A stretch of DNA of 64,000 nt, taken from assembly GCA_036517335.1 (NCBI GenBank), contig DATDWX010000027.1, positions 24,192 through 88,191 on the forward strand. The letters run 5' to 3'. Origin of the DNA: Minisyncoccota bacterium. Its GTDB lineage: Bacteria; Patescibacteriota; Minisyncoccia; Phycocordibacterales; UBA2100. Positions 26,901 to 29,733 of the stretch are shown piece by piece. Position 1 is the stretch's first letter. Every line of letters begins with the position of its first letter. The notes under the pieces are model-generated. The model saw nothing but the letters and a program-made list of their open reading frames with translations. It did not search any database and was not told where the DNA came from. Made by a program: the position numbers and the translations under genes.

Positions 26901-29733
26901 CACTACCGGCAGCATTGCGGATTTTCTGTACGATGATCTACATCGGCTCACCTCTGTTTCGTTTGCCGCTTCGTCCACGGCCACGACCACTGGTATGGAC
27001 GTGCTTGTAGTGGCAGGCGGTGGAGGAGGTGGCGGTGATGGCGGTGGGGGAGGAGGCGGTGGAGTTAAATCAGACACCGTGGCCTTTACCACCCCGCAGG
27101 CATATTCCGTGACTGTGGGTGCGGGAGGCGCAGGCGGCGTTGGCGCTGCCAGCACGCACGGAGGTCAAGGCGAGGATTCAGTCTTTAGTGGTATCACCGC
27201 ACACGGCGGTGGCTACGGTGCCGCACCCAATGGCGACACCAACCACCCAGCTGCTGGCGGCAGTGGCGGTGGCGCTTCGTACGGCAACAGCACCTCCGTC
27301 CCCACCACAGGCGGAGCCGGTACTTCTCCCGAAGGCCAAAATGGAGGCGGCGGTCTCAATGGGTCCACATACGGAGCAAGCGGAGGCGGCGGTGGCGCAG
27401 GAGCCACAGGAGCCGACTCTCCCGCGGGAGATTCGGGAGCGGGAGCGGGAGGCGTTGGCATCTCATCATCCATCAGCGGAGCGGCCACGTACTACGGCGG
27501 CGGAGGTGGAGGAGGAGCATACCAGGCAGCATACGGAGGAAATGGCGGCAGTGGAGGAGGAGGCGGCGGAGCAAGCGGCAGCGGCACGCAGGGAACGGGC
27601 GGAAGCAACGGAGGACAAAACGGCACCAGTGCGTCAAGTGGCACCGGCGGAGCAGGAGGCACCAACTCCGGCGGAGGCGGCGGAGGTGGAGGCTTTCAAT
27701 CCGACTATGGACCGGGCGGCGCGGGTGGTTCGGGCATCGTCATCATCAGCTACCCCACGGACGAAATCACCGCAACAGGCGGCAATATCACCACCTCCGG
27801 CAGCAGCACCATCCACACATTCACTTCAAGCGGCACCTTCACCATCTCCGCAATCGCAGGCGGCACCGCCACCAGTACCGTCCCCCAGTCATACGATCAA
27901 ACCTACACCTACGACTCCATAGGCAACCTCACCACCAAATCCGACGTCGGAAGTTATACCTACGCCAGCACCAACTACGCCAACCCCCACGCTCCCACCA
28001 CGGTAGCAGGCACCACCCACACATACGACACCAATGGCAATCTCACAGGAGCCTCCCCCTGGACGTACACATGGGACTACCGCAACAGGCTCACGGCTGC
28101 GGGCAACGGTGCCACGAGCACCTACGCATACGATGCCTCCGACAACCGCGTCCTCCAAGCTTCCGCCAGTGCGACCACGACGTATCCGAATAGGTACTAC
28201 TCAATCATTGGAGCAACCTCCACTGACTACTTATTCACTCCCGACGGTACTCTCCTCGCCACCGTCGAGGCAGGCATCGCCACCACGACCCGCTTTATCC
28301 ACCCCGACCACCTGGGCTCCACCAACGCCACCACCAACGCAAGCAGCTCAATCCTCCAGATCCTCGACTACTATCCGTACGGCAAAAGGAGCTTCACATC
28401 GGGCACGGATGTCAGTCAACGAGAGTTCATCGGCGAACACTTCGACGAAACTTCTTCTTTGTCCTACTTGAATGCGAGATACTATTCGGGAAGCAGAGGA
28501 CAATTTCTTTCGGAGGACCCGGTGTTCCTCGGTGATCTTAAAGGCCAGAACCTTATGGATCCACAGAGCTTGAATTCTTACTCGTACGCAAACGACAATC
28601 CGATCGTTAAAAAAGATCCAACTGGCAGATGTCCAATGTGCGCATTGGGACTGATTGGAGCTGGTGCAGGAATTGTCGGGCAATTCGGATATGATGTCTA
28701 TTCCAACGTCCAAGCAGGCGGATATCAAAATACATTCTCGAACTTCTCTAGCGGAGACGTATATCTTACTCGAGCGGCACAGGGGGCAATAGTTGGTTTT
28801 ACTGGAGGTGTGGCAGGAAGCCTCGGAATAGTTGGTCAAGCAACAGCTGTTGGAGTTGCTTCTGGCGCTGCTGGAGCAGGTGGTAATTATGTGCTCGGCC
28901 AATCCGTTACTCCGCAATCTGTTTTCTTCGATACTACTATCGGAGGATTAACTTTTGGCCTGGGGAAATTTGTTCCTGCTGTTCCGGGACGCTTGCCAAA
29001 CTTCGGTACCCAGGCCTTCTTTGCTGGCAAACATGCACAACAAAGTGCGTATCAACTTGCTTACGGATCATTCGCAAACTTCCAGAGTCAGCTCTTGGGA
29101 AGCTTTGGGAATACTCAACTGTCGCGCAATACGGTAGCGCAAAACTACAATAGTAGCGTTGGTGCGTCGGCTCCTCAAGATAAACTCTGGACTACGCCGA
29201 ACGGGGCCATCGTGACGTGGGGAGGAGGTATTGTTATTGGCCCAATGACGCAGCCTACCCCGTCTACCTCAAAGCGGATACGAAAAAGAAGGGAACGAAA
29301 TGCGGATAAAAGTGTAACAATCTATAGGGCGAACAAATTCTATGGCCTACCAGCTTTAATTATTCCGTTGCTGCTAATTATCCCACTTCTGAATTCAACA
29401 GTATCTCTCGAAAGCCGCCTTATCGGGCTCGGGATATTTTTACTTACCACACTTATGATAATACTAGTCCCATTTGGGGCACGACTAGAAATTGGGGATG
29501 ATTTTGTAAGAACCCGTCTGTTTGGACTTCGGCTCTTGGAGTTGCATCCTGCCGACATTCAAGCGATGACGTACGGGAAGCTCTTTCGCGGTGGGCTTGG
29601 GGTTGGGATGGGTATAAACATAAGAGCCATTGTTAATGGAAAAAGTAGAATTACCAGCATTGGAGAAAAGTTCTACAGCAAAGAAGCGGTTGCCCATGCA
29701 AAACGTGTTCTTGAATCTGCGGTAACGATTTAG
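20944..29733 (+). CDS. giant secreted RHS/YD-repeat polymorphic toxin (TcB/TcC-fusion-like) with two glycine-rich modules and a LamG domain
   Basis: Signal peptide MNRVPKRAFVVVLATAVIVGNAVSAYA. SpvB-like N-domain (RHISLDIPPGRSGLQPDISLDY...GYGWTLSIPYIQR). FG-GAP-like repeats (DVNADGKPDVVRG, GDINGDGLPDYEE, MDMNGDGLPDFVRA). Many YD repeats (YTYDAAGNL, YSYDDVGNLTSQTD, YEYDVLGRT). RHS-associated core ending in the DPxG-type motif NDNPIVKKDPTG at 28615-28626, followed by a variable C-terminus. Confidence 0.85.
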   Translation: MNRVPKRAFVVVLATAVIVGNAVSAYAVVIPPTAPGQSVFTIGNQTPRVDGSTGALTRHISLDIPPGRSGLQPDISLDYNSQNTEQESLVGYGWTLSIPYIQRLNKTGSQNMYGPNAYFTSSFDGELAISDTGTSTSMTVLVVAGGGGGGSDGGGGGGGGVKTVTIPITTPQAYSVTVGSGGTAGSAGAGTHGGQGGDSVFDSTTAHGGGYGAAPNGDTNHPAAGGSGGGAGYGNSTSVPTAGGAGTAGEGNNGGGGLNGVSSYGASGGGGGAGAAGADSPGGDTGAGAGGTGTSSSINGTATYYGGGGGGGGLQGAYGGNGGNGGGGGGASGSGTQGTGGSNGGANGTNSSNGTGGAGGTNSGGGGGGGGFQSDYGPGGAGGSGIVIISAPVGAITSATGGTHTTAGDNDVWTFTASGTFTIVSVADGASDSPASSTYRARVDDGSFRSYSYATSSNSWTMYDKKGTRYLFGASSQGQQSATTSPSSVYKWMLEEVRDTNDNYISYTYLKDENQIYPYQIKYTGNGVSDGPSTITIATSTRSDQAVSYKSGFKVLTAYRISQITATFNSTNVRQWALGYGTGNNGSRSLLTSIQETGWNDAGTQTTLPAATFEYVSTTTPFYGPNLGTNVVGSAYVVADSEGDGINGISILYLDGGSNKGKIISPDGNTTTNLTSPAPPEEWSNSGGGAPLPTYLADERGVRYLDVNADGKPDVVRGIKDDYAATTTKQIYENTYAATSTYGWTNGISWSGTIPEFAYKSDSTHSWTTGIFGDINGDGLPDYEESLNNTGGAITNGAYLGNGTAWDAATTTIFAAMNVMPDSVSGPTVYNPQLIDINGDSLADWVSSDSSNTYVQLNTGTGWVYDTRWIIATSTLYHSTSPGNTYYDRGIRFMDMNGDGLPDFVRAYANAPFTGSVTEPEIEVATISLVLLNTGSGWATSTAYTLAPIASPYHDSGTSWTSGVIVYNEYANWIGNGQMQQDVLATTTSSKGGSTTVSYGLTTQTSANTQLPYALLTVNSITDHDGRGSNERTDYAYSGGLQYLPSNVYDRKFAGFASTTETRPDKTTVRYYHQGTLMQTALGEQSNGYAHINHPFREDVFTPSGTSVQKTFYRWDPYTNASSTLILLGRKLEQNYASNGTHRDKDTDYAYATSTGDIIRINDFGEVSGNSNGTFSDISGDSRTTRFTYAASSSVFMSVPIQKTLLDNSSATSTDTKLYYDSLAFGSVGRGNQTMQKDWISGDTYASTTRAYNTYGLASSSTDRGGNLTSYVYDSFNLYPATSTNASSQSTRFTYNYSNGKTATTTDPNTAIAKNMYDGVGRLTEMYQSDTSNPSTLVTKATYTFTDSTSTPSLIRVTQYLNSATTTDTYTFYDGLNRPIQERKSTETAGTYATTDRIYHRVGNLASTTLPYFSSGTSLTTATSTTALYTEFLYDPLGRPTKVSNSVGSTTNTYGKWTTTTVDPNGSIKEYLLDAYGNLSQVVEHATSTATTTYTYDAAGNLALITDAASSTRAFTYDGLGRRTGAQDLHASGDATFGSWSYSYDDVGNLTSQTDPKAQVITHTFDALNRMVTEALSGSGVQITNTYDSCTYGVGRLCSASSTAALNAYEYDVLGRTSIATSTVNGTGYATVYGYDRQGNQTSITYPDKREVSYVYNAAGLMNSVSTKPVGGAYSSVLSATTYAPDGKPLTKLFGNGVETTYTYDPLLQYRLTRMLTGTNAGTSTEIVPLVSDPVAYWNLDESNGVAYDAIASNDLTNNNSVSYATGTISNAATFVAANSQSLQKLTASGLPTGSESIAAWVKFTSLPVSTWYGIVEQGNAATSSKFGLTITDDPVGADNLYSLAIDHFGGTNVYSDAWSGVATGTWYHVAATYDGTNFRWYVNGSQLGAAKGAGTQTTSGAQIVVGAMIDSSLENFLNGSVDEVGVWDNVLTQSELTALYNAGAGEAYPFGTTTVSTYGYANLIQDLNYTYDAVGNITNVTNNSTTTGSIADFLYDDLHRLTSVSFAASSTATTTGMDVLVVAGGGGGGGDGGGGGGGGVKSDTVAFTTPQAYSVTVGAGGAGGVGAASTHGGQGEDSVFSGITAHGGGYGAAPNGDTNHPAAGGSGGGASYGNSTSVPTTGGAGTSPEGQNGGGGLNGSTYGASGGGGGAGATGADSPAGDSGAGAGGVGISSSISGAATYYGGGGGGGAYQAAYGGNGGSGGGGGGASGSGTQGTGGSNGGQNGTSASSGTGGAGGTNSGGGGGGGGFQSDYGPGGAGGSGIVIISYPTDEITATGGNITTSGSSTIHTFTSSGTFTISAIAGGTATSTVPQSYDQTYTYDSIGNLTTKSDVGSYTYASTNYANPHAPTTVAGTTHTYDTNGNLTGASPWTYTWDYRNRLTAAGNGATSTYAYDASDNRVLQASASATTTYPNRYYSIIGATSTDYLFTPDGTLLATVEAGIATTTRFIHPDHLGSTNATTNASSSILQILDYYPYGKRSFTSGTDVSQREFIGEHFDETSSLSYLNARYYSGSRGQFLSEDPVFLGDLKGQNLMDPQSLNSYSYANDNPIVKKDPTGRCPMCALGLIGAGAGIVGQFGYDVYSNVQAGGYQNTFSNFSSGDVYLTRAAQGAIVGFTGGVAGSLGIVGQATAVGVASGAAGAGGNYVLGQSVTPQSVFFDTTIGGLTFGLGKFVPAVPGRLPNFGTQAFFAGKHAQQSAYQLAYGSFANFQSQLLGSFGNTQLSRNTVAQNYNSSVGASAPQDKLWTTPNGAIVTWGGGIVIGPMTQPTPSTSKRIRKRRERNADKSVTIYRANKFYGLPALIIPLLLIIPLLNSTVSLESRLIGLGIFLLTTLMIILVPFGARLEIGDDFVRTRLFGLRLLELHPADIQAMTYGKLFRGGLGVGMGINIRAIVNGKSRITSIGEKFYSKEAVAHAKRVLESAVTI
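21355..22115 (+). repeat. glycine-rich module 1 of the RHS protein (VLVVAGGGGGG...GGAGGSGIVIIS)
   Basis: About 250-aa poly-Gly-rich domain. Duplicated at 26995-27760 with about 80% protein identity, and related to the Gly-rich block in the minus-strand surface protein at 61576-62140. Confidence 0.7.
26995..27760 (+). repeat. glycine-rich module 2 of the RHS protein
   Basis: VLVVAGGGGGGGDGGGGGGGGVKSDTVAFTTPQAYSVTVGAGG...GPGGAGGSGIVIISYP. A paralogous copy of module 1. Confidence 0.7.
28627..29244 (+). other. RHS C-terminal variable toxin domain (glycine-zipper-rich, lower GC)
   Basis: Lies immediately after the DPTG core motif. The sequence CPMCALGLIGAGAGIVGQFG...GAIVGFTGGVAGSLGIVGQATAVGVASGAAGAGG has GxxxG zipper character. 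Composition shifts clearly toward AT relative to the RHS body. Confidence 0.55.
29245..29733 (+). CDS. candidate immunity protein translated in-frame from an internal start (or fused) at the 3' end of the rhs ORF; two predicted TM helices
   Basis: ATG at 29245 is preceded by GGAGGAGGT at 29221-29229. The sequence is MTQPTPSTSKRIRKRRERN...LPALIIPLLLIIPLL...LIGLGIFLLTTLMIILVPF. It is strongly AT-shifted (about 42% GC by eye). There is no separate downstream immunity ORF before the orphan module. Confidence 0.35.
   Translation: MTQPTPSTSKRIRKRRERNADKSVTIYRANKFYGLPALIIPLLLIIPLLNSTVSLESRLIGLGIFLLTTLMIILVPFGARLEIGDDFVRTRLFGLRLLELHPADIQAMTYGKLFRGGLGVGMGINIRAIVNGKSRITSIGEKFYSKEAVAHAKRVLESAVTI

Follow-up and report, generated by a model that had tools for sequence, protein, structure and literature searches.

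Introduction

A defining rule of polymorphic toxin systems such as Rhs, contact-dependent inhibition (CDI), LXG and type VI secretion system (T6SS) effectors is, almost always, the presence of a separate and tightly linked immunity gene. In the Rhs protein Tse5 (RhsP1) of Pseudomonas aeruginosa, the C-terminal region (CT) is a pore-forming, depolarising toxin that is autoproteolytically released and kept inside the shell built by the YD repeats (PMC9637101, PMC10684867), and its immunity protein, Tsi5, is a small protein of the cytoplasmic membrane with two predicted transmembrane (TM) regions (PMC9637101). The glycine-zipper membrane-depolarising toxins of monoderms, EsxX, TspA and TelE, insert extended GxxxG helices into the cytoplasmic membrane, immunity being conferred by ExiAB/ExiCD and TsaI; EsxX has to be countered from both faces of the membrane, in part by a cytoplasmic protein that grips the glycine zipper (PMC12744356). 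The Gly/Ala-rich helices that follow the DPxG motif of mosquito SGS1 are stored inside its YD shell and are predicted to become transmembrane (PMC9935623). At the engineering level, artificial toxin-immunity fusions have been seen to neutralise toxins co-translationally (bioRxiv 10.64898/2026.07.31.742022). The present analysis concerns a Rhs gene of a Minisyncoccota bacterium (assembly GCA_036517335.1), contained in a stretch of 64,000 nucleotides of contig DATDWX010000027.1 (positions 24,192 to 88,191, hereafter the window), in which a predicted membrane toxin and its immunity-type partner are encoded in a single chain. Coordinates are those of the window unless a locus (L followed by a number) is named, and the gene and its parts lie on the forward (+) strand.

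Organization of the fused gene

The complete Rhs/YD-repeat polymorphic toxin open reading frame (ORF) occupies positions 20944..29733 and encodes 2929 aa in a single frame. Its variable CT comprises 368 codons (28627-29730; predicted size 38.6 kDa) and is closed by a TAG stop (29731..29733, from the ORF reading) 33 nt upstream of a rhs remnant. Two protein families meet within this CT. The toxin moiety, delimited by homologue alignment and predicted helices, spans CT residues 1-214 (28627..29268; ~215 aa, 22 kDa), and the immunity-type moiety, delimited by its homologues and an AlphaFold model, spans CT residues 230-368 (29314..29730; 15 kDa). They are joined by the polybasic linker SKRIRKRRERNADKS (29269..29313; eight Lys or Arg against two Asp or Glu), which stands in the place of the stop codon of the toxin, the spacer between the cistrons and the start codon of the immunity gene. 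In the alignment of the CT, toxin homologues reach up to residue ~217, residues 218-226 belong to neither family and stand-alone tail proteins begin at 227-232; unfused toxins end in ...STP.T.KK* and are devoid of the type of polybasic linker present in the fused genes. A sequence-only reading of this DNA had claimed that no separate immunity gene precedes the next rhs remnant, that the same frame continues to 29733, and that a fusion of this sort would be unusual for a Rhs system. The three claims are upheld: there is no stop codon between the halves and no hidden frameshift in the sequence, and eight of nine related loci have separate genes. In addition, no in-frame ATG, GTG or TTG lies between Met207 (29245) and the first TM helix of the tail, no other tail-family or toxin-family sequence is found in the 64 kb, and the identical 2929-aa protein is present on three records of 50-200 kb.

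Upstream of the CT, the N-terminus of the protein resembles, as judged by eye, a Sec-type signal peptide (MNRVPKRAFVVVLATAVIVGNAVSAYA), and Pfam matches are obtained for RHS_repeat (PF05593, E 4.2e-23, in six stretches), Gly_rich_2 (2e-14, two inserts), SpvB (1e-13) and the FG-GAP repeat. Of the Tc-toxin BC-type plan (SpvB, a TcdB mid domain and an RHS shell in one protein), SpvB and RHS are there; the Pfam search gave no match to TcdB_toxin_midN in the protein and a weak one in the relative of locus L007. The Rhs repeat-associated core (28369..28626; TIGR03696, E 1.9e-15, residues 224-309 of the segment 27700-28650) terminates exactly at DPTG (...NDNPIVKKDPTG, nt 28626), directly ahead of the variable CT. 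This core domain constitutes, in characterised Rhs and Tc proteins, an aspartyl autoprotease plug, and the profile of the toxin family also matches the Rhs cores of TccC3, YenC2 and Tse5 in a search of PDB sequences. The Gly-rich inserts are two long near-repeats (21330-22150 and 26974-27660; Gly_rich_2, E 1.8e-14; VLVVAGGGGGG.DGGGGGGGGVK...), one close to the Rhs N-terminus and the other just ahead of the last YD repeats, and nowhere else in the gene is the GC content as high.

Fused forms in other lineages

At least three other divergent lineages carry the same fusion (P0163; P0164, P0165 and P0009; P0019 and P0162), with linkers of 14-18 aa that contain 7-8 Lys/Arg. The junction reads TTKKRSRRKISRNG-VTIYKANK in P0163 (985 aa, with a signal-like N-terminus and SpvB; locus L022), STSRKRVRKKRKAGTGEE-VTVYKP in P0164, STSRKRLRKKRKAGTDGD-VAVYKP in P0165, and TTKRRLRRRVIRKGNA-TIYKPK in P0019 and P0162, which come from two JGI samples and have identical fused CTs; the truncated P0009 has a linker of the P0164 type. 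Fused relatives are 42-54% identical to the window CT, and P0163, P0164 and P0165 cover 79-100% of it at 49-52% identity. The fused proteins mix both types of the C-terminal toxin module (module B, described below) with both immunity subtypes, and the nearest relatives of each fused toxin and of each fused tail are unfused proteins. At the P0163 junction, the immunity frame of the L022 DNA is free of ATG, GTG and TTG, and the other frames are free of ATG. When hidden Markov models (HMMs) were built from unfused members only, fused tails scored 147-179 bits (unfused 112-194) and fused toxins 200-215 bits, in the top third. The existence of divergent fused relatives, together with these family-like scores, therefore indicates that the fused form is a recurrent and intact alternative architecture. 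The closest toxin relative, P0006 in locus L020 (65% identical), reads ...SKR TAA GAG AAT ATG... in one frame and is thus two codons from a fusion. Stop-codon read-through of a typical relative was considered as a general origin of the fused genes and rejected, since unfused spacers are short, lie mostly in other frames and encode no polybasic peptides. An alternative genetic code was dismissed by inspection, as the ORFs of the window are long and seem to end normally under table 11.

Several observations were made on the surroundings of these relatives. In L022, an ORF (5955-6314) overlaps the stop of the fused P0163 gene; its first ~47 aa match a type-II protein of the tail family over its N-terminal half (MNANVTLYKPRLSVMGGG...) and it continues into a DUF4258-like domain, an arrangement that looks like a recombination scar between cassettes. 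The same fused cassette has different upstream joins in the two samples, ...IGRDYLNARYY in P0019 and ...QSNLDYLNARYY in P0162 (L009 1700-3196 versus the P0162 contig), and the neighbouring genes, one for an ABC-substrate-binding protein and one of 135 aa, have opposite relative orientations in the two. In L001 (1413-3182), as in the P0162 contig, the cassette has a large serine recombinase for a neighbour, and Rhs CT cassettes may undergo recombinase-driven inversion or shuffling at the YLNARYY boundary. In L020, P0006 is frameshifted at WGGQ, and positions 4001-5400 hold an array with a second, different Gly-zipper CT, a gene of 143 aa downstream and a Transposase_mut gene; this array may be a graveyard of orphan cassettes or may reflect long-read indel errors.

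The toxin half

Four long Gly/Ala-zipper helices are predicted in the toxin, at 28633-28719, 28753-28815, 28828-28896 and 28912-28971, and they are followed by the conserved motif VPGRLPNFGTQAFFAGKHAQQSA (28981-29049, from the family alignment). These helices and the motif, VPGRLPNFGT.AFF.GKHTQQSA across the family, make up module A. Module B is a C-terminal unit of ~60 aa (..LWVTPSGAVVTWGG..GPTAQSTP.T.KK*), represented in the window by KLWTTPNGAIVTWGGGIVIGP (29182-29244) and then by a Ser/Thr/Pro-rich end. The glycine-zipper-like segments that had been noticed early in the CT are indeed there: residues 1-110 contain 21.8% Gly and six GxxxG starts. The helices are marginally hydrophobic, with Kyte-Doolittle 19-residue maxima of 1.0-1.5 and a family mean of 0.8-1.0, and the predicted model of the toxin has a predicted local distance difference test score (pLDDT) of 72. 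Homologues of the toxin sit at the C-terminus of Rhs proteins and, where the source names an organism, belong to Parcubacteria/Patescibacteria.

Each half of the CT has many homologues, so that the ORF is not a product of chance; no Pfam or NCBIfam family was found for either. None of the 47 members of the toxin family matches a known toxin family. In the PDB, a search with the single toxin sequence returned only a spurious antifreeze match and no characterised member, and the toxin profile matched Tse5 in the Rhs core only. The profile scored 49 bits with SGS1 (8fjp), against ~37 for ordinary Rhs proteins, and the alignment runs ~90 positions past the core, as far as the Gly/Ala-rich helices that come after DPxG in SGS1. 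The suggestion that the toxin inserts into membranes or forms pores is in keeping with the marginal Gly-zipper helices and with the SGS1 profile alignment, and lacks homology to a characterised member on the other side; altogether, the sequence gives good support, short of proof, to a membrane-inserting Gly-zipper toxin. Module B (29182-29268 in the window; also P0077, P0089 and L020 2201-3208; ..AVQSYN..G....LWVTPSGAVVTWGG) appears as a separate mobile C-terminal module, and it also closes Rhs CTs of quite different upstream sequence (~40 representative clusters).

The immunity-type half

The predicted model of the tail begins with a short strand, VTIY (29314-29325), which is followed by two TM helices assigned by hydrophobicity and model (TM1, 29344-29391; TM2, 29416-29475) with an outside loop of ~9 aa between them, and by a PH-like beta-sandwich with a C-terminal helix (29479-29730). 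The two hydrophobic segments reach Kyte-Doolittle 19-residue maxima of 2.19 and 2.56. The AlphaFold model, built with 42 sequences, has a pLDDT of 92.4 and shows the N-terminal strand, the two TM helices and the helix-capped beta-sandwich. Homologues of the tail are nearly all stand-alone proteins of 120-150 aa (~140) that start with M(x)1-5 [VI][TK]IYKA.K and are 41-75% identical to it. Among 41 stand-alone tails, the N-terminal tail has a net charge of +2.5, the 9-aa loop a net charge of -1.1 and the TM segments a mean Kyte-Doolittle value of 2.2-2.3; these counts therefore predict an N-in, loop-out, C-in topology, with both termini cytoplasmic. A longer variant is found in P0032, P0036 and P0045 (211-232 aa), in which two further hydrophobic helices follow the PH-like domain at the C-terminus.

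In the eight related loci with separate genes (L001, L006, L007, L011, L012, L014, L015 and L016, all with module-A toxins), the ATG of the tail-family gene lies 1-33 nt past the toxin stop codon. In L007, which encodes a complete SpvB-RHS protein of 2559 aa, the TAA is followed by GT and then by the ATG of the tail gene, and in L004 an orphan copy of the tail gene adjoins a different gene. Given that the tail gene stands directly 3' of the toxin, co-occurs with it and is also found as an orphan, it bears the classic signature of a cognate immunity gene. At the level of known families, none of the 42 members matches a Pfam or NCBIfam family, none matches the bPH models of Pfam (bPH_1 to bPH_6) at E <= 0.1, and no PDB sequence was matched by the tail profile. 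The tail had been described beforehand as two strongly hydrophobic helices resembling a membrane immunity protein, and this description holds; the tail does not belong to any known toxin domain. Its assignment as the immunity-type membrane protein of the toxin family is based on the order of the genes, on architecture and on the predicted folds. As regards initiation signals, Shine-Dalgarno (SD) motifs are almost absent upstream of the 32 gene starts of the window, and the immunity genes of related loci follow A-rich spacers (…AAAATAAT ATG), not GGAGG; the organism may use non-SD initiation or termination-reinitiation coupling.

A foreign cassette

The abrupt compositional switch reported after the Rhs core became evident once quantified, and it is clearest at third codon positions. 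The GC content at these positions (GC3) amounts to 0.606 for the Rhs body, to 0.675 over the 600 nt that lead up to the CT and to 0.693 for the rhs remnant downstream, against 0.383 in the toxin part, 0.411 in the tail and 0.40 in the CT as a whole; the 1107-nt CT falls at the 1.8th percentile among all segments of the same size in the 64 kb. The 5' boundary of the imported cassette is placed at the YLNARYY motif (28455..28480), because homology to the downstream rhs remnant stops at 28454, where GC3 drops (from about 28450-28480). The drop, from 0.7-0.86 to 0.4-0.5, begins ~150 nt upstream of DPTG. The displaced rhs 3' remnant (29767..30303, + strand, recognised as an ORF and by similarity) is broken off at the same YLNARYY boundary, and its positions 29829-30290 are 85% identical to 27993-28454. 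This remnant is therefore evidence of an earlier replacement of the CT cassette, and the equally low GC3 of toxin and tail indicates that both came as one cassette, displacing an older CT. The whole sequence after DPTG is a horizontally exchanged, low-GC3 foreign cassette.

Downstream of the fused gene there is a ParD-like/ParE pair (30438-30686 and 30673-30993; PF05016, E 3e-18), and a second rhs fragment of 83 nt (31022-31104) matches 28045-28130, so that the pair seems to be embedded in an old array of orphan cassettes (29767-31105). Elsewhere in the window, the stretch of lowest GC (55800-56900; 0.43-0.45 versus a mean of 0.54) starts a little ahead of the ORF 56497-57654 and runs into it; it may be a further insertion of foreign DNA.

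Proposed mechanism and alternative explanations

The explanation favoured here, which we rate somewhat above an even chance, is that the CT is an Rhs cassette acquired by horizontal exchange, with a single polypeptide that comprises both a toxin directed at membranes and the membrane immunity protein cognate to it. The toxin would be a Gly-zipper membrane toxin that the tail neutralises inside or at the membrane, and the immunity moiety would be made solely as the C-terminal part of the Rhs precursor. Cleavage by the Rhs aspartyl protease at DPTG/R would yield a toxin-linker-immunity fragment of 38.6 kDa. The polybasic linker would keep the junction cytoplasmic, allowing the immunity hairpin to insert in its normal orientation, and it would probably serve also as the site at which the 22-kDa toxin and the 15-kDa immunity part are separated. 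Such a fusion would provide 1:1 co-translational self-protection in an organism that apparently makes little use of SD initiation; engineered toxin-immunity fusions are built on this same principle. A bolder version of this scheme is put forward only tentatively, as a doubtful though possible one: the product would be a Patescibacteria toxin-antidote polyprotein whose linker is a combined stop-translocation and processing signal, so that during Sec export the hairpin would stay in the producer membrane at the site and stoichiometry of toxin export, while the toxin would be cut free into the shell. If true, this would be a mode of biogenesis undescribed for any polymorphic toxin system, and one that apparently arose, or spread by recombination, in at least four lineages.

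Several points weigh against the single-chain toxin and antidote. The toxin and immunity labels are derived from the order of the genes, the architecture and the predicted folds. Fused forms are few, five complete and two truncated cases among 62 tail-bearing proteins; of these, P0019, P0162, P0164 and P0165 may be orphan cassettes and not active genes, and P0163 is a short Rhs protein of 985 aa. A covalently tethered antidote should in principle neutralise the toxin in the target cell too. The Sec signal implies export upstream of the linker, and the charge rule puts the linker in the cytoplasm. As to size, the 368 aa and 38.6 kDa of the fused CT surpass the cargo of solved shells, which amounts to ~200-230 residues in Tc toxins and SGS1 (PMC9935623) and to 15-16 kDa in T6SS Rhs proteins (PMC10684867). 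Finally, the arrangement in the window is one nucleotide from a conventional overlapping gene pair.

Various explanations would obtain the immunity protein separately. The sequence-only reading had left a choice between fusion and internal initiation at an SD-preceded ATG, and of these the fusion stands. The in-frame ATG (29245..29247, Met207 of the CT) and the putative SD GGAGGAGGT (29221..29229) upstream of it do exist, and a separate protein of 162 aa could be translated from this ATG inside the toxin ORF, the fusion protein being a by-product. The ATG is located 23 codons upstream of the conserved immunity N-terminus and aligns with the Thr of the conserved GPT(A/S)QSTP, a Thr present in nearly all homologues; P0164 likewise has a Met at this position, and the basic residues added to the N-terminus would fit its cytoplasmic location. 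Functional SD sequences usually lie ~5-10 nt from the start codon. Here, 15-16 nt separate the two, and the motif provides the codons for G-G-G within the conserved WGG; likewise, GGAGGAGG ends 16 nt before the ATG and encodes the family-conserved W-G-G. SD-like strings are frequent inside the genes of the window owing to Gly codons, whereas among its 32 gene starts (taken as longest-ORF starts) a 4-nt SD core within the preceding 25 nt is seen in only two, and its spacing is usable in only one. The ATG and GGAGG are moreover paired in a predicted local hairpin (a fold that is not significant, z 0.69), a search for an internal promoter or terminator gave no signal above shuffled expectation, and the Met is missing in P0163, P0165 and P0019/P0162, L022 lacking any in-frame start near the junction. 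Internal initiation is therefore possible for this one gene and is not a general solution; as the explanation of the window it is considered unlikely. A second proposal is that a single-nucleotide deletion in the A-run 29308-29311 merged overlapping toxin and immunity genes, either as a recent mutation or as an assembly error. One added A in this run would open a distinct reading frame for the immunity protein, MRIKSVTIYRANKFYG..., and end the toxin at a stop codon (...NADKKCNNL*), and the new N-terminus closely resembles the stand-alone ones, MKITTYKANKFYG and MSIKIYKSKK. Its ATG, at 29300, has GAAGGGA 6 nt upstream and now opens, as detected by eye, a mini-ORF in the +1 frame (29300..29317, + strand; ATG CGG ATA AAA GTG TAA, MRIKV*), which could be left over from an earlier state with two genes. 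A +1-frame ATG stands at the corresponding position of L009 as well, and the toxin relative that is closest, the one in L020, carries a frameshift. L022 has no such ATG, and the vestigial out-of-frame ATG was rejected as a general feature. Against an accident or artefact, the identical protein is found on three records, whose source appears to be a short-read groundwater metagenome in which a run of four A is not error-prone; the ORF is intact over its 2900 remaining codons; fusion with the same kind of linker is seen in three other lineages, among them L022 without the out-of-frame ATG; and no unfused relative was found in which a polybasic toxin end overlaps the immunity start. An accident of this sort is thus judged improbable for the window. 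Fused and split states may nevertheless be only one or two small mutations apart, a distance that could explain the recurrence of fusions. Programmed -1 slippage on A-AAA-G (29308-29312) after a start at ATG 29300 would also deliver a separate protein, with an N-terminus that by eye is the canonical one, and the four A's might allow tRNA-Lys to pair again one base further back; the site is however not an X-XXY-YYZ heptamer, its A-run is only four long, the structure downstream falls short of significance (z 0.69), and the corresponding positions lack a slippery site in L009 and an ATG in L022, all of which makes this route scarcely credible. Transcriptional slippage was rejected on account of the same short A-run.

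Other explanations accept the fusion and dispute its function. The cassette could be disarmed, the fusion permanently neutralising the toxin while the gene only gives immunity to the toxins of neighbours, or decays. A tethered antidote should block the toxin, P0019, P0162, P0164 and P0165 look like orphan fragments devoid of the N-terminal Rhs part, and P0009 has a premature stop just past the junction in a contig with a split Rhs. Fused toxin domains nevertheless score in the top third of their family, which would be unexpected if they were useless, the fusion of the window belongs to an intact signal-peptide gene of 2929 aa and P0163 also has a signal-like N-terminus and SpvB, and the linker is consistently polybasic, unlike random read-through. 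A disarmed cassette is accordingly given a small, though real, chance. It could also be that the tail is not an immunity protein but a membrane anchor or biogenesis factor, such as a shell tether or a toxin chaperone, whose partnership with the toxin becomes covalent through the fusion. The strong hydrophobicity of its TM helices, an immunity assignment drawn from sequence, and the connection of the YD shells of SGS1 and teneurin to outside domains and membranes would be compatible with this function. On the contrary, the classic mark of immunity is a gene for a small membrane protein that adjoins the toxin CT on its 3' side, co-varies with it and also occurs as an orphan (L004), Tsi5, TsaI and ExiCD are precedents of membrane immunity to Gly-zipper toxins, and autoproteolysis at DPTG would cut the anchor off the shell. 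This function is regarded as very unlikely.

Significance

The Rhs toxin/immunity cassette is of a known kind, and its two families are without a Pfam or NCBIfam model. In the literature searched, whose incomplete coverage makes this an absence of evidence only, neither family was found described, nor was any natural fusion of an Rhs toxin with its immunity protein, including the in-frame type joined by a conserved polybasic linker. Together with at least three divergent lineages, the gene of the window constitutes a recurrent natural exception to the rule of the separate immunity gene, with toxin and antidote as one chain. This arrangement raises the questions of how a toxin that is secreted comes apart from an antidote embedded in the membrane, where, relative to that membrane, each part comes to lie, and whether fusion takes the place of translational coupling in organisms with little SD initiation. 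At the practical level, the two families, a Gly-zipper four-helix toxin and an immunity-type protein with two TM helices and a PH-like domain, could be used to annotate many Rhs loci of the candidate phyla radiation, and the fusion offers a natural template for engineered toxin-immunity fusions in the production of toxic proteins.

Comparison with known systems

The toxin of the window is like Tse5 in being a Rhs CT, a predicted membrane toxin and the companion of a two-TM immunity-type partner. Tse5 is, however, delivered by the T6SS, whereas the window protein has a Sec signal and an SpvB N-terminal domain; Tse5-CT has 16 kDa and the window toxin 22 kDa, with no detectable sequence similarity outside the Rhs core; and Tsi5 is encoded by a separate gene, whereas the immunity-type protein of the window is fused. 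EsxX, TspA and TelE are LXG substrates of the type VII secretion system and not Rhs proteins, their sequences are unrelated, and their immunity genes are separate and do not encode PH-like proteins. In the tail of the window, a TM hairpin and a cytoplasmic domain are combined in one protein. SGS1 and SGS4 (PDB 8fjp, 9on3) share a Tc-toxin-like YD shell with Gly/Ala helices right after DPxG, and further C-terminal domains exit the shell; the similarity of SGS1 beyond the core is weak and compositionally biased, and SGS1 is eukaryotic and has no immunity-like tail.

Looser likenesses are found at the level of architecture. The predicted model of the toxin (pLDDT 72) resembles the four-helix membrane proteins Tim17/Tim22/Tim23, OEP16 and NDUFA11 in shape only; the Foldseek E-values of these matches are not significant and no sequence relationship was found. 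The bPH membrane proteins YdbS and YdbT (Pfam bPH_2) are like the tail in having two TM helices and then a PH-like domain, and differ from the tail family, in which the first beta-strand precedes the TM hairpin. In B. subtilis, ydbST contributes to resistance against antimicrobial compounds of other bacilli. Finally, natural fused type II toxin-antitoxin (TA) proteins exist. Single-chain TA proteins and engineered fusions are intracellular addiction or defence modules or laboratory constructs, and not secreted polymorphic toxins that leave the producer; with the gene of the window they share the trait of a toxin and a neutraliser that are covalently linked, in such a way that neutralisation would be intramolecular and co-translational.

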